A stretch of DNA of 13,440 bases, taken from the UHGV virus genome UHGV-1946153; one strand, 5' to 3'. Made by a program: the position numbers and the translations under genes. The DNA comes from a virus. Below the pieces are notes generated by a model that saw only the letters and a program-made list of their open reading frames with translations, had not been told where the DNA came from and ran no database searches. Positions 1,509 through 13,440 of the stretch are shown one piece after another (position 1 is the stretch's first letter; every line of letters begins with the position of its first letter).

Positions 1509-1748
1509 CTATTTCCTGCGTATGGCACGTAACTTCTTAATGTGTTCTGCTGTTTCGATCTCTTCAGCTATCCGATCTGCGTCAGCTTTATTCACAGGTT
1601 CAAAGTCATGATTAAAGCGGAACATGCTGGCGATACATGTTCTGCCTTTTCGGATGTAGTGAACTTTGTTGTGAGTGGAACGCAGGATTTTGCAGGGAGT
1701 GCCGTGGTGGTCGACGTACCAGGTGTTAGGGTAAATCACTCTGAACAT
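1509..1748 (-). CDS. Hypothetical small protein, 79 aa
   Basis: Intact ORF in the leftward operon with ATG at 1746-1748 and a weak AAGG RBS. No family recognised from the sequence. Confidence 0.55.
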   Translation of the reverse strand: MFRVIYPNTWYVDHHGTPCKILRSTHNKVHYIRKGRTCIASMFRFNHDFEPVNKADADRIAEEIETAEHIKKLRAIRRK

Positions 1749-1773
1749 TCTTGACCTTGTGTTGTGCGGATTG

Positions 1774-2058
1774 TTATTCAGTGCCGATATTTACCTTTAT
1801 CGCGTATACCTTTACCGGTTTATCACCGAAGTGCGGATGTGTGATTGTCTTCACTTCATATCCGTCATACGGAACATCAACTCTGCGGCTGGAATCGTCG
1901 CGCTTCGGATATCCCTTTGTGATAATCAGGCGGTCATGCTTACGGTTAACGAGGCGCTTTTTCCAGTAGTCATTACACAGGCGATACTCTTCCGTTTTCT
2001 CTCCGCGAATCATGGCATCGAAGTATTCACCTTTAACGGCAAGTTGCAGGTTAGCCAC
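1774..2058 (-). CDS. ASCH/PUA-like domain protein, about 94 aa
   Basis: GTG start at 2056-2058 preceded by AAGGAG with a 6-nt spacer; the longer track ORF (to 2142) lacks an RBS. N-terminal motif FDAMIRGEKTEEYR fits the ASCH-domain signature (I/M-x-G-x-K-T-x-E-x-R). Confidence 0.6.
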   Translation of the reverse strand: MANLQLAVKGEYFDAMIRGEKTEEYRLCNDYWKKRLVNRKHDRLIITKGYPKRDDSSRRVDVPYDGYEVKTITHPHFGDKPVKVYAIKVNIGTE

Positions 2059-2674
2059 GGTTAACTCCTTGCTGTGTGGCGTCGAGTAATAAATCCCACA
2101 ACCGCTGAGAGCAATTTCCGCATGTACAGCGTTGACCCACAACGTTTATCGCGTTGCTGATTTCCGGCGTTACCTGTTTAGGAACCATAACCCAACCATC
2201 CGGAGTTACCGGAGAGTTGCCAAACAGCTTGTTCAACTTGTAAGTCTGGCTTACAGGTTTGACACCGTGAAGCATGGTGGCGCGGCAAGCATCCTCTACG
2301 CCTTTAACTGCATCTGCGCAGTAGTTATAGCGATTGCATTCCACTAACTTCTGCTTGAGATTTTCAATTGCCTGCGCGACATCAGCCTGTATTACCGGCG
2401 CTGGCGGTGCCATGTAAAGCGGAGTGACGTGTACGACAGAACCAAGTGTCTCATGTATCCGAACCCATGTATCTTTCTCTGCACAGTCACGGTAAATAGT
2501 AGAGGCTGAGTCCTGACCGTCTTTTGTGATTGTGACCTGCCATGCCACCGGTTCAGCTTCCAGCGAGGCTAACGCTATTTCATAAGCCCGGCGCTCAATA
2601 TTGTCTCGCACATCCAGGCTGCCTATGCGCTCTTTGATTTCTTTAATCATTTCTTTGTCGGTAAAAGTGCTCAT
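2051..2674 (-). CDS. Hypothetical protein, 207 aa, with shared N-terminal IALASLEAEPVAW module and Cys-rich C-terminus
   Basis: ATG at 2672-2674 preceded by AAGGAG (rc of 2681-2686). The motif YEIALASLEAEPVAW is shared with the adjacent upstream gene. C-terminal CTCGNCSQRLW may bind metal. Confidence 0.65.
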   Translation of the reverse strand: MSTFTDKEMIKEIKERIGSLDVRDNIERRAYEIALASLEAEPVAWQVTITKDGQDSASTIYRDCAEKDTWVRIHETLGSVVHVTPLYMAPPAPVIQADVAQAIENLKQKLVECNRYNYCADAVKGVEDACRATMLHGVKPVSQTYKLNKLFGNSPVTPDGWVMVPKQVTPEISNAINVVGQRCTCGNCSQRLWDLLLDATQQGVNRG

Positions 2675-2675
2675 A

Positions 2676-3122
2676 TCAATCTCCTTTGGTACCAATGTTT
2701 ACAGCCTGGCAAGCCTCTTTGAGTACCCAATCAACAGCGTCTTTCCATGCTCCGGTTTCGACTGGCGGATTTTCACGTTTAACCTGTTCATAGAAACGCA
2801 CGGCTTTAACCAGTCCTTCTGATGTCACCGGGACTGGCGGGGCAGTGAATAAGGCCTGAATCTCATAGCTCGGCCTGTCGTTGCAATCCTCTTTTGTCGG
2901 TACATATTTCCAGTCACCAACCCACGGCTCCCCCTGAGAGTCCGTAACGCCTTTTTTCACGTAGCGATATCGCCACGCTACAGGCTCCGCTTCCAGCGAT
3001 GCCAGCGCAATCCGTGCCAGCTCTTCCGCTTCTTCTGCTGGCAGTACAACGTTGCTACCAGGTCCGTATGTTTCGCGCCACTCCTTGATTGTCAGCAGTC
3101 GCTCTTTGGTAATAGTGGTCAT
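2676..3122 (-). CDS. Hypothetical protein, 148 aa, with shared N-terminal IALASLEAEPVAW module
   Basis: ATG at 3120-3122 preceded by AAAGGAGAG. Its stop is 1 nt from the next start. Contains ARIALASLEAEPVAW, paralogous to the neighbouring gene. Confidence 0.65.
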   Translation of the reverse strand: MTTITKERLLTIKEWRETYGPGSNVVLPAEEAEELARIALASLEAEPVAWRYRYVKKGVTDSQGEPWVGDWKYVPTKEDCNDRPSYEIQALFTAPPVPVTSEGLVKAVRFYEQVKRENPPVETGAWKDAVDWVLKEACQAVNIGTKGD

Positions 3123-3123
3123 C

Positions 3124-3735
3124 TCACTCTCCTTTGATGCGAATACCAGCGGCGCGTGGCACATTAACTTCCACGATGCGCACTGTTGGTTTGTACATCT
3201 CAATCGCTGTCAGCCAGTCAGCTCCTGTCATGCGCTTTTCCGCATCGCCATTAGTCCACTGAACCGGTACACCAATAGCCTTCATCGCGATTTCTATTTC
3301 CCCGGCAATGGCGCTTTTTCCGCAACCAGTAAAACCAGATACAACGACCAGAACTTCACCTTTGGCTGGTTTTATTTCCCGTGCTTCCAGTTCTGCAATG
3401 CGCTTACTTCCATCCGAGATAACGCNNNNNNNNNNNNNNNNNTGCTCGTTGAGTTTTGATTTTGCCAACTCCAGTTGTTTTGTTAGTTCTGCAATACGAC
3501 AAACATCGTTGATACGCGTTTCCTCTAATGCGTTGCTCTCATCCAGTAGCGCCAGCACGGTTTCTGGTCCGGCCAGAAATTTGAAGGCGTTGAGGGCATC
3601 AATATCAACACCGCTATCTTTAAGTTCCTGTTCGCTTATCAGATCATCATCAACTGGCAACATTAACAGGCGTTCCATTGCTGGAGTTGCACGTTCTGCC
3701 GCCTCACGTAGTGCCTGGTAATTAATTTCGCTCAC
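3124..3735 (-). CDS. Hypothetical protein, about 203 aa, possibly Ead/Ea22-like; interrupted by an N-run
   Basis: GTG start at 3733-3735 with AAGGAGG 7 nt upstream, overlapping the upstream stop (GTGA). Acidic helical N-terminal half. C-terminal half contains a Walker-A-like GFTGCGKS. The family name is recalled from memory, not verified. Frame continuity across the 17-N gap is assumed. Confidence 0.6.
   Translation of the reverse strand: MSEINYQALREAAERATPAMERLLMLPVDDDLISEQELKDSGVDIDALNAFKFLAGPETVLALLDESNALEETRINDVCRIAELTKQLELAKSKLNEXXXXXXXVISDGSKRIAELEAREIKPAKGEVLVVVSGFTGCGKSAIAGEIEIAMKAIGVPVQWTNGDAEKRMTGADWLTAIEMYKPTVRIVEVNVPRAAGIRIKGE
3426..3442. other. Assembly gap / masked bases (17 N)
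   Basis: Run of N characters inside the CDS at 3124-3735. Confidence 0.99.
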
Positions 3736-4307
3736 TGGTTGCCTCCTTTGCGAAGCTGGGCAGCAAAGTCAACTAACCACTCAGTCATTTCAACCTTCCC
3801 TACCAGGTCTGAACCAGGGTGCATACAGCAATCACTCTGCGCCGCTTTGAAATCCTTATACTCATATTCTTGGACCACCAGATTTTTTGCAGCTTCTATA
3901 GCAGCATCCACCCCCTGCGCCCGCACTTCAGACAGGAAAGCATCAGTGGCTGGAATGGGCTTTTGTGGTGATATAGCAATGCGAATTGTCTCAAGGTCTG
4001 GATCTGTTTCCGCTGCTGGCACCTTGATATAACCCATCTGCACCCCATTCATGATGAACCTGCGACGGTCATCACATATCGCCTTTAGCCCCGCACTCTC
4101 CGCTGCCAGCGCCGCGCACTTGGCCTCAAGGTTATCAATCGTGATTCCAGCAGAACGACACTCCCGCAACGCCGTTTCCAGTTTTGATTCAAGCTCACCG
4201 AACTTACGCACCAGATATTCAGCGTTTGTTTCGTTAACCTTTAAATCTCGTGGGATGCATTTACCTTTCAGAAATCCATCCATCTCAATTAGTGACATTT
4301 GTTTCAT
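3732..4307 (-). CDS. Hypothetical protein, about 191 aa
   Basis: The track ORF begins at GTG 4325, but the ATG at 4305-4307 overlaps the stop of the upstream 54-aa ORF (ATGA coupling) and is taken as the start. Acidic protein with no recognised domain. Confidence 0.6.
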
Positions 4308-4468
4308 TTCTTCCCACTCCGCCACATCGCATTCAGATATTTGTTTTGATTTACTGAAGGAAAAGAATTTCTCTTAAGCAATTCCTCTCTCGATGGCATT
4401 GGCTTTACTCGTTGGCGAATAATCATTTCTGCCGGAAGAATGCCGGGATTGTATGCAAGTCCTCTCAT
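4304..4468 (-). CDS. Small hypothetical protein, 54 aa (not in the ORF track)
   Basis: Hand-translated: [63 protein letters not shown] 5 nt upstream. ATGA overlaps at both ends (4465-4468 and 4304-4307) fill the gap between flanking genes exactly. Confidence 0.4.
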
Positions 4469-4746
4469 GATTTACTCTCCACTAACTGGTCAATAGCCAT
4501 GCTAAGTGACATACCTAAAGTTTCGATATGCTGCTGAATATCCTGTAGCGTCTGCGCCTGAGATAACAGGATTTCACGGTTGCATAACTCTTTAACCAGA
4601 TGCTCAAACTTGCTGTAATAACCGATACGACTTAGTGTTTCTTTCCCTGCATTCTCGCCTTCTTTGATAATTCCTCTTTCACTAAGAATCAGGTCGTGTT
4701 TGGTTCCGGTAATAACGTATTTTCCGAGGTCGATGTTTAGCTTCAT
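4465..4746 (-). CDS. Hypothetical protein, 93 aa
   Basis: Intact ORF with ATG at 4744-4746 and GGAG 9 nt upstream. Confidence 0.6.
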
Positions 4747-5088: not shown

Positions 5089-5571
5089 TTATTTGATAAG
5101 AAGTGAAGGTTTCCCAACCTTGAGTTGAGCGCCGGGGATATTTATTCCTGCTTTTAGTTGGTGCTTGATTGCCAACTTGTCGGCTTTAATTGTCGTTTCG
5201 AACTCAACGTATTCAGGAGGAAGGGCGCTTGAGTCGATGATTTCTACAGTTTCTGACGGTTTGCGGATTGTTACCTGGTGAATACCTGCTCTAATCTTTT
5301 TCTTGCCAACCATTTCAAGCGATGACGCTATATATGATTTGATGCTGTCAATCTTATTTTGAATTACTGCGGCTCGCTCATTCAGCGACTTTGCCTCTTC
5401 CTTGAGGCGTTCAGCATAACCAGATTCATTTTTAATGACGGAAAGAAGTTGCTCTATTTTATCGGTAAATTCTCCTTCCATGCCTTCTATTGTGTCAGCA
5501 ATCATCTCTGGTTCTAAATCTGAATCCATCAATTTTGCGTATTCATTGGCAATTTCATACAGTTTGCTCAC
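5089..5571 (-). CDS. Siphovirus Gp157-like protein (recombination-module accessory), about 160 aa
   Basis: GTG start at 5569-5571 with GGAGG and a 6-nt spacer; the track ORF starts at TTG 5577. Acidic helical N-terminus then ...GKKKIRAGIHQVTIRKPSETVEIID...LPPEYV...GAQLK resembles the Gp157 family as recalled. Lies immediately downstream of recT. Confidence 0.65.
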   Translation of the reverse strand: MSKLYEIANEYAKLMDSDLEPEMIADTIEGMEGEFTDKIEQLLSVIKNESGYAERLKEEAKSLNERAAVIQNKIDSIKSYIASSLEMVGKKKIRAGIHQVTIRKPSETVEIIDSSALPPEYVEFETTIKADKLAIKHQLKAGINIPGAQLKVGKPSLLIK

Positions 5572-6457
5572 TGGCAACCTCCAGTTTCGCTTTGCATTCT
5601 GCGTAAATGGCTTGTACGTTCTGCTGCAATTTCATTCCAGATGTCAGGCGATATGCTTCTGCAAAATATCGCTTCAAATCATCCATGTTTTCTGCCTGAG
5701 CCATTTCATCGCAAAGAAGTTGTGCTTTATCCATTATTTCCTGCTGGCGTTTCCGTTCATCTTCGCGGATATCTTCCTCTGATTTGTGCGGCATAACTGG
5801 TTCCTGATGCATACCTTCATCTTCGTTAAGAAGGTGAATGGCATTATCCAGTCGCTGGGCTTTAGGCCAGTATTTGCTGGCGCGTTTAACTATTGTTTTA
5901 CGCGCCATCTCTTCCCAGAATGTTTTCCACGGTCCATTCTTTGCCTTGCTCGTTGCTTCCACAGCTTTAATTTCTGCCAGACTCATTTCTTCAGTCAGGT
6001 AGTCACCATCTGCTGTTTTAACCGTGCAATAACCTCCAACAATAGAGCCTCGCTCACCAAATGCGTTGTATTTGTGGGTTGGTGCTGAATCAAGGCCATT
6101 TGATTCATAGGTGTCGTTTGAGTACACCAGTTTGCATTGCCCCCACTTAATTGATCCTGTCGATTGCGCAAGATGAAGTAATCCCATGTAACTGATATCA
6201 AGGCACACCATGCCGTCGCGAGGAACCAGATAAGCCAGTTTGCTGGCCGGGTTTAAGGTGATGCCGATCGCCGCAACATTGATGATGGCGTTCTGTGCGC
6301 TGGTTGGATTTGCCAGTGCTGTTTTAGCCAGGTAATCGTTTTTCTGGAAATACTGAATTGCAAACTGGCTTTCCTTAGCCCATGTCACCGTCTGTTCAGT
6401 CAATGCTCCGCAGAATAACTGCTCCTGCTGTTTAACGAATTCAACGATATTGCTCAT
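5555..6457 (-). CDS. recT: RecT-family single-strand annealing recombinase, 300 aa
   Basis: Motif GPWKTFWEEMARKTIVKRASKYWP matches the RecT signature of the Rac prophage protein (GPW...HWEEMAKKT...R..KYLP). RBS GGAG 7 nt before the ATG at 6455-6457; ATGA overlap with the upstream gene. Confidence 0.9.
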   Translation of the reverse strand: MSNIVEFVKQQEQLFCGALTEQTVTWAKESQFAIQYFQKNDYLAKTALANPTSAQNAIINVAAIGITLNPASKLAYLVPRDGMVCLDISYMGLLHLAQSTGSIKWGQCKLVYSNDTYESNGLDSAPTHKYNAFGERGSIVGGYCTVKTADGDYLTEEMSLAEIKAVEATSKAKNGPWKTFWEEMARKTIVKRASKYWPKAQRLDNAIHLLNEDEGMHQEPVMPHKSEEDIREDERKRQQEIMDKAQLLCDEMAQAENMDDLKRYFAEAYRLTSGMKLQQNVQAIYAECKAKLEVASEQTV

Positions 6458-7038: not shown

Positions 7039-7048
7039 NNNNNNNNNN
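7039..7048. other. Assembly gap / masked bases (10 N)
   Basis: Run of N characters in the intergenic region. Confidence 0.99.
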
Positions 7049-7146: not shown

Positions 7147-8115
7147 TTAGTAGGTTATTTTTGTTGCGAATACTTCGCCTTTTACGATGGCTGTTATGAT
7201 ATTTTTAGCAACATCTTCTGGTGCGCCAACCTTGATAAGGTCAGCAAGTATTTTGTTATTTACTTCTTTCCGGTGAGCTTTATCCTTTGCTCTACGCTCT
7301 TCTTCGTCCTTGATTCTTTTTTCTTCTGCTATTCTGGCTTGCTCTTTTGCTTCAGCCTCGCGCCGGATTCGTTCAGCCTCCTCCTGTGCTTTTCGGCGTT
7401 CTGCTTCAATTGCCGCCTGCTTTTCTCTTTCAGCTCGTTCTGCTGCCTCTTTTGCTTCGCGCTGTGCTCGTTGCTCGGCTTCAATGCGTTCACGCTCTGC
7501 ACGTTCCGCTGCGGCCTTAGCTTCTGCTTCTCGCCTTGCTGCTGCTTCAATTTCGGCTTTTGCCTTTGCTTCGGCTTCAGCTCTGGCTTTCTCTTCAGCT
7601 TCTCTTTGTAAGCGTTCTTCATGCTCTCGCTTTTCCTGCTCCGCTTTGAGTCTTGCCTCTTCTCTTTGGCGGTCAAATTCGCGATCCATCAAAATCGCTA
7701 TTTCATGGTCAGACTCAATTTGCTTTGCGAGAGCTTCAGCTGCTGCCTTAGCTTCTTCTTCGGCTTTAATCCGCGCCTGTTCTTCCTCATAATCAGTAAG
7801 AGGCTGGCGCGCCTTGGCTTTCAGTTCATCAAGGCGATCGCGCACTGTCTTGCGGTTGGCATCAATTAGCTTTGGAATTTCCTTCAGTTCAGCAACAAGG
7901 TCTTTGCCAAGACCATCGAGATATGTTTTCGTCTGCGCAACTTTATACGCCAGAGAAGCGATCTCCTTTCTGCCCTTTGCCGTTGTGATATCAGGCACAA
8001 AGGACATAACTTCACGTTCAACCTTTTGAAGGATTTCTTCAATCTGGTCGGCAGACTGAAATACAGTCATTGCATTTGCTTTTTCAATAACAACTAAATC
8101 TGTTACTTCACTCAT
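7147..8115 (-). CDS. Hypothetical protein, 322 aa, with a long Glu/Ala/Lys/Arg-rich helical region
   Basis: ATG at 8113-8115 with GGAGG 4 nt upstream. A globular N-terminal domain is followed by about 170 residues of EAKR-rich sequence typical of a single alpha-helix or coiled coil, then a short C-terminal domain. Confidence 0.75.
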   Translation of the reverse strand: MSEVTDLVVIEKANAMTVFQSADQIEEILQKVEREVMSFVPDITTAKGRKEIASLAYKVAQTKTYLDGLGKDLVAELKEIPKLIDANRKTVRDRLDELKAKARQPLTDYEEEQARIKAEEEAKAAAEALAKQIESDHEIAILMDREFDRQREEARLKAEQEKREHEERLQREAEEKARAEAEAKAKAEIEAAARREAEAKAAAERAERERIEAEQRAQREAKEAAERAEREKQAAIEAERRKAQEEAERIRREAEAKEQARIAEEKRIKDEEERRAKDKAHRKEVNNKILADLIKVGAPEDVAKNIITAIVKGEVFATKITY

Positions 8116-8151
8116 ATATCCTCCATCAAAAAATCGCCCTCACATTGGAGG

Positions 8152-8225
8152 NNNNNNNNNNNNNNNNNNNNNNNNNNNNNNNNNNNNNNNNNNNNNNNNN
8201 NNNNNNNNNNNNNNNNNNNNNNNNN
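8152..8225. other. Assembly gap / masked bases (74 N)
   Basis: Run of N characters between the 322-aa gene and the AT-rich cassette. Confidence 0.99.
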
Positions 8226-8257
8226 TCGTTGGAATGAATACACAGTGCTTATTCGTA

Positions 8258-8728
8258 CTAATAAAACACCCAATTTTCTGTTTCTTGGTTGTGTCCAAAG
8301 TTATATTCAATATCTGGTGTTGATGTATCAATATTCTTCATCCCATCAACAAGAGTTGATACAACAGCTAAATCTTGTTTGATTCGCATCAAATGGTATT
8401 TCTTCCGGCGCAATAAACTTTCAATGGCAAGTTTCTTCGTTGGGAATGCAAAAGATCTTTCTGCATTTTTTGCTACTTTCTTAATTGCATATCTATTTCT
8501 CCTTTGTTTCCATTCCTGTAACCACTGATTTGGTGCTGGTTTAAAATTAACAATCCAATGCGCAGGAACCAACCATGCATAATGCTCTGTCTGATGAAAA
8601 GCTATATATTGAAGTGCGAATATTTTGATCCCATCTTCTTCAACTGTCGCTTGGAATCTCCAGAAAACAGGCATTCCATCATGTTCAGTTTCTGATTCAG
8701 GAAAAGGTACGCTCCATGATTTTGTCAT
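8258..8728 (-). CDS. Hypothetical protein, 156 aa (AT-rich accessory cassette)
   Basis: ATG at 8726-8728 with a GAGGTGA RBS. Local GC looks clearly lower than the flanking DNA (estimated by eye, not computed). Soluble, Trp/Lys-rich, no recognised domain. Confidence 0.65.
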   Translation of the reverse strand: MTKSWSVPFPESETEHDGMPVFWRFQATVEEDGIKIFALQYIAFHQTEHYAWLVPAHWIVNFKPAPNQWLQEWKQRRNRYAIKKVAKNAERSFAFPTKKLAIESLLRRKKYHLMRIKQDLAVVSTLVDGMKNIDTSTPDIEYNFGHNQETENWVFY

Positions 8729-9727: not shown

Positions 9728-10378
9728 TTATGGAAGGTTTGCTAGTTTTGCATCGACAACTACGCCGATGATTTTGCAGTTCCCGTTGATCTCGATCATC
9801 GGATATTGTGGGTTAAGTGGTTTTAGAAACTTCCTGCCTGCATCAATAACTAACTTCTTGAAAGTTGCCTCGTTTTCTCCTTCGAGCTTTGCAACTACCA
9901 GTTTCCCGTTACGCGGCTCTACTTCAGGATCGACGAGTATTATCATTCCTTCAGGGATACTGAGACCGGCCGGAGCCGTCATTGAGTCTCCCTTCACGTC
10001 CAACCAAAACGAATCGTCTGAACAGTCTACGGTTGTATCGTACCAGTTATCTATTGCACGCTTATGATATGGTTCTACAGCTTCCATCCAGCATCCTGCG
10101 CTCACCCAGCTAATCAGAGGGTATGACCCTCTTGGATCATGCCTACTGTGATAGGCAATGTTTGAAAGACTTTCCTCTCCTTTCATCAGATAGTCAGGGG
10201 AACACTTCAACGCATTAGCCAGGGCGAGAAGATTCTCTCCATTTGGCTCTGTCTCAGAGCGTTCCCACTGAGATATGGCAACATTAGACACGCCGACCAT
10301 CTTTCCAAGTGCGGCCTGCCTGATCTTGAGTTCTTTTCTCCGAGCGCGAATGCGCTCTCCCATCAATTGAGTTTTCAT
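9728..10378 (-). CDS. cI: CI-type prophage repressor (XRE HTH N-terminus, LexA/S24 autocleavable C-terminus), 216 aa
   Basis: N-terminal HTH LGKMVGVSNVAISQWERSE. Ala-Gly cleavage-site context PLISWVSAGCW (lambda cI: FSHVQAGMF). Catalytic Ser in VKGDSM and Lys in LVVAKL. No upstream Shine-Dalgarno, so a leaderless lambda-cI-like start is plausible. Confidence 0.92.
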   Translation of the reverse strand: MKTQLMGERIRARRKELKIRQAALGKMVGVSNVAISQWERSETEPNGENLLALANALKCSPDYLMKGEESLSNIAYHSRHDPRGSYPLISWVSAGCWMEAVEPYHKRAIDNWYDTTVDCSDDSFWLDVKGDSMTAPAGLSIPEGMIILVDPEVEPRNGKLVVAKLEGENEATFKKLVIDAGRKFLKPLNPQYPMIEINGNCKIIGVVVDAKLANLP

Positions 10379-11275: not shown

Positions 11276-12104
11276 TATGGGGTATGTCTCTATACACCGC
11301 CAGTTTATGGACAGCAGGCTCTATAAGGACTCTCAGGCAGTACATCTTTGGCTTCACTTAATCCTCAAGGCTAATCACGAATCTACTGTCGTCAATACGG
11401 ATATCGGTCCGATAACTGTTGATCGCGGTCAGATGATAACTGGACGCCCGTCGCTGGTCAGAGAAACATTCATCCCCGACAACAAAGTTCGGAGCTTATT
11501 ACGGACTTTTGAGTCGAAAGGGATGCTTAATATTTGCTCGATGGGGAAGAAATTTAGCCTGTTTACAATCGTTAAATATGACGATTTTCAGGCAAAAAAT
11601 TGTCCAACGGTTGTCCAACGGTTGTCCAACGCAAACACCAGTAATGGCGCGGCTCTCAGCGGAGATTGTCCAACGGTTGTCCAACGGTTGTCCATAAACA
11701 ATAATATAAATAATATCTCTAATACTGACGTATTAGAGAGTGCCACAGCAGACAAAAAGTCTGACAAGAAAAAACCTTCCGTTAGCTGTCAGGATGTTGT
11801 CGATGCTTACCACGAAATCCTTCCTGAAGCGCCAAGAATCCGCGCACTGAATGACAAGCGTAAAAACCAGATCCGAACGTTCTGGCGCAAAGCCGGAGTG
11901 ATAACCCGCCAGCTTGACGGGCATGGGTTCACGATGCAGGACTGGAGAAATTATTTGAGCTACGTAGGCGAAAATTGCCGATGGATGTTCGAAGAACGCC
12001 CAAACCATCAACGCGGAACCGTCTGGCACAAAAAGGGATTTGATTTCCTGCTTAACGACAATACCTACCTGAAAGTTCGTGAGGGTGAACACGATGACCG
12101 ATAA
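11276..12104 (+). CDS. Replication initiator (lambda O / P22 gene 18 analogue) with the origin embedded in the gene
   Basis: ORF contains the iteron array and AT-rich region and is followed by an overlapping helicase gene. Start chosen at ATG 11276 (AGGAGG, 8-nt spacer); alternative ATG at 11214 (AGGAG, 6-nt spacer) gives the 296-aa track ORF. No direct sequence similarity to lambda O was recognised; the call rests on synteny and iterons. Confidence 0.8.
11600..11698. repeat. Origin iterons: six 11-bp direct repeats (TTGTCCAACGG) in two triplets
   Basis: Repeats at 11600-11610, 11611-11621, 11622-11632, a 33-bp spacer, then 11666-11676, 11677-11687 and a degenerate 11688-11698. Lies inside the initiator CDS, as in ori-lambda. 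Confidence 0.8.
11716..11739. repeat. Perfect 10-bp inverted repeat in the AT-rich region next to the iterons
   Basis: TCTCTAATAC-tgac-GTATTAGAGA inside AT-rich sequence (about 11694-11740). Candidate DNA-unwinding element or binding site. Confidence 0.5.
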
Positions 12105-13440
12105 TTTTTATGCGCCGCCCCATAGCATCGAGGCAGAGCAGGCGGTGATTGGTGGATTGCTTCTGGATGATGACAGCAGTGAGCGCGTCCAGAAAGTTCT
12201 GGCGATGCTGAAGCCTGATTCATTTTACAGCCGACCACACAAAATCCTTTTCGAAGAGATAACCAGAATGCACCGGGAGCAAAAGCCAGTAGATGGCCTG
12301 ACGCTTTTCGATGAACTGGAGCGTAAATCGTTAACGGCGTCTGTTGGCGGTTTTGCTTATATCGCTGAGATCGCAAAGAACACGCCAAGCGCAGCAAACA
12401 TCGTTGCCTATGCAATGCAGGTTCGTGAAACCGCAATGGAACGCTACGCCATCAACCGCATGACTGAAGCGACGGAATTGCTCTATTCCCGCAACGGAAT
12501 GACTGCAACGCAGAAGTACGAAGCTATTCAGGCGATTTTCACGCAACTGACAGACCATGCAAAAACCGGATCGCGTCGCGGCCTTCGCTCATTTGGTGAG
12601 GTCATGGAAGACTGGGTTAGCGACCTTGAGAAGCGATTTGATCCGTCAGGCGAACAACGAGGAATGAGCACAGGGATCCCATCGCTGGACAGGATGCTGT
12701 CACCGAAAGGACTGGTGAAAGGCTCTCTGTTTGTCATTGGCGCTCGCCCTAAGATGGGGAAAACGACGCTATACAGCCAGATGGCAATCAATTGCGCAGT
12801 GCATGAGAAAAAGCCCGCTCTGATGTTCAGCCTTGAAATGCCAGGTGATCAGATACTGGAAAAACTGGTAGGGCAGAAGTCTGGTGTTAACCCGAATATT
12901 TTTTACCTTCCGGCGACAAATGACGCTGATGACGGCTATCAGGGTGATTACGATGGTGACTTCAACAGGGCGATCGAAACAGCTAATCGCTTGAGTGAAA
13001 TCGACATGCTTTACATCGACGACACGCCGGGATTATCTCTGGCTCAAATCGTCAGCGAAAGCCGTCGAATCAAGCGAGAAAAAGGATGTGTTGGCATGAT
13101 TCTGGTCGATTACCTGACACTAATGACCGCTGAGAAGGCCGATCGCAACGACCTTGCTTACGGCATGATCACCAAAGGACTGAAGAACCTTGCCAAAGAG
13201 CTTGATTGCGTTGTTGTGCTTCTGACACAGCTTAACCGCGCACTGGAAAGTCGAACCAATAAACGCCCATTACCAAGTGACTCACGAGATACAGGGCAGA
13301 TTGAACAGGATTGCGATTATTGGGTGGGGATCCATCGTGAAGGTGCTTTTGATGACAGTGTTCCACCTGGTGAAACCGAACTAATCCTTCGTCTCAATCG
13401 TCATGGCAATACCGGCACGGTGTATTGCATTCAGGCAAAT
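12094..13440 (+). CDS. DnaB-family replicative helicase (P22 gene 12 type), 3'-truncated at window end
   Basis: ATG at 12094 with GAGGGTGA 5 nt upstream, overlapping the initiator stop. DnaB N-terminal motif PHSIEAEQAVIGGLLLD and Walker A GARPKMGKTT. Open to the end of the window, so absent from the ORF track. Confidence 0.92.
   Translation, partial: MTDNFYAPPHSIEAEQAVIGGLLLDDDSSERVQKVLAMLKPDSFYSRPHKILFEEITRMHREQKPVDGLTLFDELERKSLTASVGGFAYIAEIAKNTPSAANIVAYAMQVRETAMERYAINRMTEATELLYSRNGMTATQKYEAIQAIFTQLTDHAKTGSRRGLRSFGEVMEDWVSDLEKRFDPSGEQRGMSTGIPSLDRMLSPKGLVKGSLFVIGARPKMGKTTLYSQMAINCAVHEKKPALMFSLEMPGDQILEKLVGQKSGVNPNIFYLPATNDADDGYQGDYDGDFNRAIETANRLSEIDMLYIDDTPGLSLAQIVSESRRIKREKGCVGMILVDYLTLMTAEKADRNDLAYGMITKGLKNLAKELDCVVVLLTQLNRALESRTNKRPLPSDSRDTGQIEQDCDYWVGIHREGAFDDSVPPGETELILRLNRHGNTGTVYCIQAN

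Follow-up and report, generated by a model that had tools for sequence, protein, structure and literature searches.

Adjacent genes A and B of a lambdoid E. coli prophage as mosaic early-left accessory genes with modules strung on conserved joints

We propose that two neighbouring genes of a lambdoid prophage, which we call A and B, belong to a modular family of accessory genes from the early-left (exo-xis or "ea") region, and that the modules of this family are strung on short conserved joints. We give this account as a whole a probability of roughly 0.7. (The exo-xis/ea region of lambdoid and Shiga-toxin phages affects the decision between lysis and lysogeny, and it contains many uncharacterised mosaic genes.) A and B are ordinary members of this known mosaic class of accessory genes in lambdoid phages. 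We will refer to the joints as J0 to J3 and to the modules between and behind them as M1 to M4. The window is the whole stretch of DNA that was analysed (13,440 nucleotides from the virus genome UHGV-1946153).

The window corresponds to the left arm and the immunity region of a lambdoid E. coli prophage that is similar to P22, HK620, and CUS-3 (Table 1). All of the genes listed for the window are on the minus strand, except for cro, cII, and the replication genes. An identical gene order, adjoining tRNA-Thr/proA, is present in the closest E. coli genome. The stretch from 1700 to 4400 was not found intact in any record of either collection that was searched: the best match covers 81% of it, and the other matches cover less than half of it, in pieces. 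The region is therefore highly mosaic. When the window was scanned for Rfam families and tRNAs, nothing was found.

Both genes start right behind the stop codon of the gene upstream. The TGA stop of the Ea22-like gene (3124-3126) is one base ahead of A's ATG, and A's TGA stop (2676-2678) is one base ahead of B's ATG. Each Shine-Dalgarno sequence lies inside the preceding gene (Table 1), and A and B are probably translationally coupled behind the Ea22-like gene, in the early-left operon. Their position and the analogy with lambda (PMC8614690) suggest that both genes would be carried on the early transcript from pL. Other members of the family (defined below) have a similar arrangement. Across 53 distinct start regions, the upstream gene's stop is 0-3 nt from the ATG in most; conservation upstream of the ATG is limited to the bases of the Shine-Dalgarno sequence, and the first nine codons (ATGACCACTTTTACCGACAAAGAACTG) are conserved. 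In 80 viral loci, all of the recognisable neighbours share the strand of the family gene. Ea22-like genes (17 loci) and phrog_614 genes (25) are always upstream of it, and ASCH genes (11) and int (8) are mostly downstream.

Table 1. Genes and sequence features of the window, in order of position.
Feature	Position	Strand	Remarks
Integrase	1-1143	minus	
Excisionase-like gene	1133-1369	minus	
ASCH-like gene	1774-2064	minus	phrog_625; downstream of B, GTG start overlapping B's end
Gene B	2051-2674	minus	207 aa; best PHROG phrog_5117
CTCGNCSQRLW in terminal module M4 of B	2099-2131	minus	residues 182-192 of B
J3 of B, GNSPVTPDGW	2192-2221	minus	residues 152-161 of B
J2 of B, PLYMAPPAPV	2393-2422	minus	PPAPV = residues 90-94 of B
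J1 of B, YEIALASLEAEPVAW	2540-2584	minus	exact 13-mer 2540-2578 = residues 33-45 of B
J0 of B, MSTFTDKEM	2648-2674	minus	first nine codons
Gene A	2676-3122	minus	148 aa; best PHROG phrog_660
Shine-Dalgarno of B, AAGGAG	2681-2686	minus	read from sequence; inside A's last codons (..KGD, then stop)
J2 of A, ALFTAPPVPV	2826-2855	minus	PPVPV = residues 95-99 of A
J1 of A, ARIALASLEAEPVAW	2973-3017	minus	exact 13-mer 2973-3011 = residues 38-50 of A
J0 of A, MTTITKERL	3096-3122	minus	first nine codons; conserved family start
Ead/Ea22-like gene	3124-3735	minus	upstream of A, co-oriented; PF13935, E = 2.1e-18; C-terminal P-loop-like region
Shine-Dalgarno of A, AAGGAG	3129-3134	minus	read from sequence; inside last codons of Ea22-like gene (..KGE, then stop)
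phrog_614 gene	3732-4325	minus	
DUF5405 gene	4465-4746	minus	
Gp157 gene	5089-5577	minus	
RecT	5555-6457	minus	
CI-like repressor	9728-10378	minus	
cro	start 10459	plus	
cII	start 10666	plus	replication genes follow

The translations of A and B share an exact 13-mer, IALASLEAEPVAW, which is preceded by AR in A and by YE in B. About 50 residues past the 13-mer, both proteins have the pattern (L)(F/Y)xAPPxPV, as PPVPV in A and as PPAPV in B. A sequence-only reading of this DNA had pointed out both of these similarities, and both are correct. It also put the identity of the underlying DNA at about 70%, which is close to the value that we measured: 30 of 45 nucleotides (67%) are identical over 15 codons, or 30 of 39 over the 13 identical codons. 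The Cys-rich CTCGNCSQRLW, which it placed at the end of one of the proteins, is present in B, but near the C-terminus rather than at it (B ends with ...QQGVNRG). No third copy of the motif was found in the window in any frame. By our own estimate, the chance that two proteins of this size would have an exact 13-mer in common is around 1e-11. BLASTP aligns A and B with 29% identity across 154 columns (E = 3e-9), so their resemblance is above chance.

As for known families, A matches phrog_660 (E = 1e-59) and B matches phrog_5117 (E = 1.9e-37). Each protein also matches the other's PHROG, as well as phrog_60 and phrog_3323, and these are families of unknown function. Scanning both proteins with Pfam and NCBIfam gave nothing usable. 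(The sole match, to Cas3_I-F_Cas2 with E = 0.05, was below threshold and we treated it as noise.) PADLOC models did not match A, B, or the three neighbouring genes that were scanned with them, and a full-text search of the literature for the motif "LASLEAEP" found no papers.

We then ask which parts of A and B are alike. We divided both sequences at the motifs and compared the corresponding segments, with 2000 shuffles as the reference for each score. J1 (x-x-IALASLEAEPVAW) had z = 11, J2 (A/P-L-F/Y-x-A-P-P-x-P-V) had z = 4.4, and the N-terminal segment (the first ~9 to ~30 residues) had z = 3.5. The ~39 residues between J1 and J2 had z = 0.1, and the remainder past J2 is barely similar (z = 1.5). 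Because only J0, J1, and J2 are alike, A and B have a common frame, not a common domain. This disagrees with the earlier suggestion that the shared module is a conserved interaction domain: outside of the joints there is no clear similarity, and the cassette between J1 and J2 is not alike at all by this test.

The same results bear on whether the resemblance means anything. J1 has many Ala, Leu, and Glu residues, and neither protein is matched by Pfam or NCBIfam, as might be expected if the shared stretch were a low-information helix or if the open reading frames were not real. But all 13 residues are identical, including P, V, A, and W; the alignment and J1 itself score far above shuffled or chance expectation (E = 3e-9 and z = 11); there are thousands of homologues under purifying selection (see below); the PHROG matches are strong; and both genes have a Shine-Dalgarno sequence and a start that is coupled to the upstream stop. 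This possibility is already refuted, and we give it a negligible probability.

AlphaFold2 models of the two proteins are poor overall (mean pLDDT of 64 for A and 57 for B), and the small domain between J1 and J2 is the only part that is modelled with confidence (pLDDT of 75-89). Both models have two N-terminal helices, with J1 as the end of helix 2. EAEP is then a turn, VAW opens strand 1 of the small domain, and this domain closes with a strand (...LY or ...LF) directly ahead of a low-confidence PPxP linker. Thus the local picture at J1 is the same in both models, but the domain that follows is not. In A, the order of the modules is M1' (a helical hairpin), J1, M2' (a cassette that is predicted to be all-strand), J2, and M3' (two helices). 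In B, it is M1, J1, M2 (a cassette that is predicted to be strand-strand-helix-strand), J2, M3 (a helical hairpin), J3, and M4 (two helices with CxCxxC). As modelled, J1 is not a domain but a joint, in which a helix finishes, a proline follows, and a strand begins. The frame marks the borders of the modules, so it can guide the cutting of these proteins into domains for studies of their structures or interactions. Comparing both of these low-confidence models to PDB with Foldseek gave no match below E = 0.3 (the best were at 0.3-0.5), and the matches of B's model in BFVD are all uncharacterised phage proteins. Family profiles compared to the sequences in PDB gave nothing below E = 0.07.

Profile searches place A and B in one very large family of enterobacterial prophage proteins that does not have a Pfam model. 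Our family profile comprises the first ~95 positions (M1-J1-M2-J2), and we searched it against 1.84 billion cluster representatives. With a cutoff of E ≤ 1e-3, it matched 3127 of them (from clusters at 50% identity); with E ≤ 1e-10, it matched 766. The members are 69-423 amino acids long, and in some of them the unit occurs two or three times. Escherichia, Shigella, Salmonella, Enterobacter, Citrobacter, and Trabulsiella are the sources of the named members, and phages with members include 933W (L0065), VT2-Sakai (H0075), HK022, SfV, and Min27; the labels of the phage proteins vary ("EaA protein", "DUF551 domain-containing", or "hypothetical"). We also defined a J1-framed family by a start of MxTxT, a J1 of [I][A][L][A]S[L]E[A]E[P] at 29-60 residues from the start, and a J2 of (L/V)(Y/F)xAPPxP at 26-110 residues after J1. 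A and B have all three, and in 144 representatives these features show at least 90% conservation. The consensus sequences of the joints are MTTxTKExL (J0), IALASLEAEP-V/I-A/G-aromatic (J1), P-L-Y-x-A-P-P-x-P (J2), and, in B, GNSPVTPDGW (J3). (A scan of genome contigs with a very narrow pattern gave 14 loci, which is of little use for judging how the family is distributed.)

The homologues of A are "hypothetical proteins" of 148-170 amino acids. Those of B number in the thousands: many of them share just its first ~135 residues and continue with DUF551 (PF04448), a few run into a dATP/dGTP pyrophosphohydrolase domain (PF04447), and others have just the last 53 residues in common, at 100% identity. 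The sequence-only reading was therefore right that the C-termini diverge, but the variable parts flank the shared peptide on both sides. Among 144 representatives of the family, 43 contain DUF551, one contains PF04447, one contains Caudo_TAP, and about 99 have no Pfam domain; in scans of these representatives, no Pfam model was found that covers the N-terminal frame. As the J0-J1-J2-J3 frame is found in over 3000 protein clusters and has no Pfam model, building one would improve the annotation of prophages.

Within the family, the modules occur in many combinations. There are at least 29 types of J1-J2 cassettes that are mutually unrelated by BLAST, with lengths of 26-110 amino acids (median 45), and every type opens with V/I-A/G-aromatic and closes with P-L-Y. 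Ten types of M1 and 29 types of M2 were observed in 60 combinations, with 143 four-gamete quartets; these counts are from a biased sample, because the relatives were gathered by their similarity to A and B. For instance, one protein (P0020) combines A's exact M1 with a third kind of M2 and with B's M3 and M4. Each module of A and of B has near-identical copies elsewhere, in other combinations. J3 (GNSPVTPDGW) precedes B's M4, or DUF551 (...ISCSERMP...), or "LVPxEPTxEM" modules, and some proteins have tandem "EPVAW...LYAAPPAP" units. We also located where the similarity ends. There are 272 pairs that match at 95% identity or more on the upstream side of J1 and are unrelated on its downstream side; these lose their similarity at nucleotides +2 to +40 of J1. 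In 15 reverse pairs, it is lost at nucleotides -2 to +8. These comparisons indicate that the modules reassort freely across the family and that similarity switches at the joints.

The sequence-only reading had described the relationship between A and B as an old duplication or a domain shuffle. Shuffling of modules agrees with our results, and a recent duplication is not backed by them. If A and B were sister copies from a local tandem duplication, then the 13-mer would be identity left over after they diverged. The two genes are indeed adjacent and co-oriented, with a common start and common joints, and two family genes are close together in 14 of 94 loci. However, their J1-J2 cassettes are dissimilar (z of 0.1) and differ in their predicted secondary structures, near-identical copies of their modules are present in other proteins in other combinations, and 9 of the 13 identical codons of J1 differ synonymously. 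A local duplication is largely refuted, and we consider it very improbable. Instead, we infer that A and B are adjacent because differently assembled members of the family have built up in a mosaic region.

What is conserved in the joints is the peptide. A and B have 9 differences across the 13 identical codons, and all of them are synonymous. The exact 13-mer is present in 33 copies across loci; 20 distinct DNA sequences encode these copies, and 12 of the 13 codons vary synonymously. J1 has the highest pS of any segment (0.43-0.50), with a pN/pS of around 0.2, and pN/pS was 0.13-0.31 in every module tested. The low pN/pS of all of the modules implies that they are functional coding sequences under purifying selection, and the deepest synonymous divergence, at J1, implies that J1 predates its surrounding modules. 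Overall, these substitution patterns indicate that purifying selection acting on the peptide, rather than recent exchange of DNA, maintains the joints.

As DNA, J1 would be a marginal substrate for recombination. Red-beta needs 23-27 bp of exact pairing (the MEPS), although it tolerates divergence, and RecA needs 31-34 bp (PMC3945230). Exact runs within J1 have a median length of 14 nt, and among pairs from different loci they reach at least 23 nt in 19% and at least 31 nt in 3%. In the window, the longest exact run between the J1s of A and B is 11 nt. Given such short identity, many of the exchanges may be illegitimate recombination along with selection for intact joints, rather than recombination that the joints template. 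J1 is conserved in every member of the family, so breakpoints at its edges are expected under either mechanism of exchange. In a test of recoding avoidance, two copies of J1 in one phage had essentially the same mean identity (0.81) as copies between phages (0.78). None of 14 pairs from the same locus had an exact run of 23 nt, versus 19% of pairs from different loci, but as several of these loci are copies of each other, we base no claim on this.

We propose that J1 (a helix end that leads through a proline into the first strand) and J2 (the last strand and a polyproline linker) would act as structural connectors, which would let any cassette plug in, in-frame. Constraint at the protein level would preserve the joints. 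The conserved joints would also provide short patches of DNA identity, and "relaxed" recombination of the RecT/Red-beta type could sometimes use these patches to swap cassettes with co-infecting or resident prophages. Exchanges by whatever mechanism would survive only if the frame is intact. RecT is encoded by the same phage as A and B. The family could provide a clean natural data set for asking if in-frame conserved joints guide phage recombination.

Another way to account for the conservation is that J1, together with J0 and J2, is itself functional, as a docking or oligomerisation surface for a common partner, with the variable modules giving specificity. The partner might be a host protein, a second member of the family, or the coiled-coil Ea22-like protein that is co-transcribed with A and B. 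In the 144 representatives, residues M1, T3, T5, and L9 and the I-A-L-A-S-L-E-A-x-P of J1 are at least 90% conserved, despite the variable flanks, and the pN/pS of J1 is low at a high pS. In our reading of the sequence, the small-residue pattern A-L-A-S-L-E-A would suit the tight packing of helices against each other; in the models, T3, T5, and L9 would adjoin J1 in an antiparallel hairpin; and some phages have two members side by side. On the other hand, a purely structural connector predicts equal conservation, and the pLDDT of the hairpin is just 57-77. We consider a docking surface to be unlikely but worth keeping in mind. An extended version of this idea seems more doubtful still: the residues of J0, J1, and J2 might form one spatial hub that docks the members onto a common partner (an Ea22-like oligomer or a host protein), while the tip of the hairpin, the J1-J2 cassette, and the terminal modules might be a combinatorial library of small binding domains, diversified by in-frame exchange of the RecT type and targeting varying host or defence proteins.

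We prefer the account in which J1 and J2 are structural connectors. As to what A and B do, our guess, by analogy with other exo-xis proteins, is that they act by binding host or phage proteins, and we would describe them as [quoted passage not shown] with low confidence.

Short conserved boundary sequences between the mosaic modules of lambdoid phages have been described before (Susskind & Botstein 1978 and Clark et al. 2001, the latter on HK620, as cited in PMC3029335). Like those sequences, the joints of A and B are short conserved stretches where similarity switches and whose flanking modules reassort. Unlike them, the joints are inside coding sequence, and their conservation is at the level of the peptide, with synonymous changes free to occur, rather than of the DNA. 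We read the joints of A and B as the old idea of a conserved boundary sequence, moved inside genes. Polymorphic toxins have demarcation motifs, such as VENN in CdiA, which we mention only as an analogy. As in A and B, a short invariant peptide stands between a conserved part and downstream modules that can be exchanged for one another. Unlike polymorphic toxins, A and B have no sign of a toxin/immunity pair or of secretion and no match to a defence system, and their variable parts flank the motif on both sides.

Judged by genomic neighbourhood and common modules, Ea22 and other exo-xis proteins from lambda and Stx phages are among the nearest proteins that have been studied. Ea22 favours lysogeny and is mosaic, and its C-terminal domains are portable (PMC10834534); the mosaicism of ea22 and the exo-xis genes, with DUF551 as a portable domain, has been described (PMC10834534, PMC8614690). 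Like these proteins, A and B are encoded in the early-left operon, in the stretch from the recombination genes to xis/int, and they are mosaic and built from portable domains. By sequence, A and B do not resemble the solved C-terminal domain of lambda Ea22, or any PDB chain. Neither A nor B matches PF13935 (Ead/Ea22-like) or has a coiled-coil tetramerisation region.

Nevertheless, some modules are found in both groups. In two loci (L061 and L024), the C-terminal domain of the Ea22-like protein is A's M3 (…EGLIKAVRFYEQVKRENPPVETGAWKDAVDWVLKEACQAVN…), which follows a J2-like PSPVVP, and the Ea22-like protein in another locus (L023) has another type of M3 that is known from B's relatives. The presence of M3 types on both Ea22-like proteins and relatives of A and B implies one common pool of terminal modules. 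Thus, the sequence of A's M3 on Ea22-like proteins points to a shared pool of modules, not to membership of A in Ea22. Similarly, L0065 of phage 933W, which has been discussed as encoding the equivalent of the C-terminal domain of phi24B's Ea22 (PMC8614690), belongs to B's family. We also considered if A and B could be split-off pieces of Ea22. Among 97 loci, no Ea22-like open reading frame is fused to J1, and every J1 is 29-60 residues from a start codon, so we rejected this idea, which holds just for the modules past J2.

Finally, the NCBI name of the protein that is identical to B is "DUF551 domain-containing protein". YfdS from the prophage CPS-53, a DUF551 protein and likewise one of the nearest that have been studied, has been linked to tolerance of oxidative stress and, with YfdQ and YfdR, to the inhibition of replication initiation (PMC4776307). 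B is like the DUF551 proteins in that the 43 relatives with this domain have the same J0-J1-J2-J3 frame ahead of it. But in B, M4 is present where those relatives have DUF551, and hmmscan with Pfam-A at E ≤ 1 found no match to PF04448 in either A or B. M4 is nearly invariant wherever it is present, so its conservation is uninformative as to a metal site at CxCxxC, and the model has a pLDDT of about 54 there. Because B lacks DUF551 and shares the N-terminal part of the DUF551 proteins, its public name reflects the N-terminal part, and is misleading.

Some endings of proteins in this family also occur outside it. The C-terminal module of gene A, the 148-aa member of the J1 family of modular prophage proteins (…KAVRFYEQVKRENPPVETGAWKDAVDWVLKEACQAVN…), is also the end of the Ea22-like ORFs in two of the fetched loci, L061 and L024. 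In a third locus, L023, the Ea22-like protein ends in another module, one that occurs after J2 (the joint peptide LYxAPPxP) in relatives of gene B, the neighbour of gene A. A single pool of terminal modules serves both Ea22 and the J1 family. The Ead/Ea22-like gene that lies directly upstream of gene A is broken by a run of Ns, and APS-kinase/AAA matches in its C-terminal region are weak (E about 0.01). In other phages, the N-terminal coiled-coil part of this gene is joined to quite different C-terminal modules.

Consecutive genes of the operon are separated by just 1 nt from stop to start, or else they overlap. They end in KGE*, KGD*, or QGV…, and these end codons form the AAGGAG for the following gene. 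Tails of the type IKGE, TKGD, or KGGNQ also end many Ea22-like and J1-family proteins elsewhere.

Features of the window and their coordinates
Feature	Position	Strand	Remarks
Gene B (P0001)	2051-2674	-	
Operon gene junctions	2051-2075, 2676-2686, 3124-3134		
Ead/Ea22-like gene	3124-3735	-	C-terminal region with Walker-A-like GFTGCGKS; N run within
322-aa protein	7147-8115	-	Long, highly charged Glu/Ala/Lys/Arg-rich stretch
N runs (masked or unknown bases)	3426-3442, 7039-7048, 8152-8225		Last run breaks ORFs around 8112-8331
DnaB-like replicative helicase ORF	12073-13440	+	At least 456 aa; open at right end of window

The public name of the protein identical to that of gene B is "DUF551 domain-containing protein", yet it has no match to PF04448 (DUF551). 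In locus L002, a "DUF551" pseudogene is annotated on a 42-codon fragment that contains the N-terminal part only.

In some J1-family proteins the "EPVAW … LYAAPPAP" unit occurs twice in tandem, and other members, at most 423 aa long, have a "beads on a string" build in which the joints ACRAAMLQG and GNSPVIPDGW/Y recur (both kinds are from the set P0288, P0358, P0375, P0287, P0241, and P0290). Fourteen loci, including the window, L026, and L044, have two J1 genes. None of the 14 same-phage pairs shares an exact run of at least 23 nt, versus 19% of different-phage pairs, but this gap may mean nothing because several of the loci are near-copies of one another.

Five short contigs (L003, L004, L005, L006, and L011) carry J1-family genes that are 56-91% identical to those of E. 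coli; the records of these contigs give Segatella copri, Collinsella, a Bacillota MAG, and Haemophilus sputorum as the source. Most likely, the contigs are enterobacterial phage DNA that was mis-binned or came in as contamination, and the listed organisms are not true hosts.

Elsewhere in the window, the 322-aa protein is labelled "coiled-coil domain-containing" in the closest genome and lies directly downstream of the positions that kil and cIII occupy there. The numerous ORFs opposite it look like by-products of its repetitive composition.
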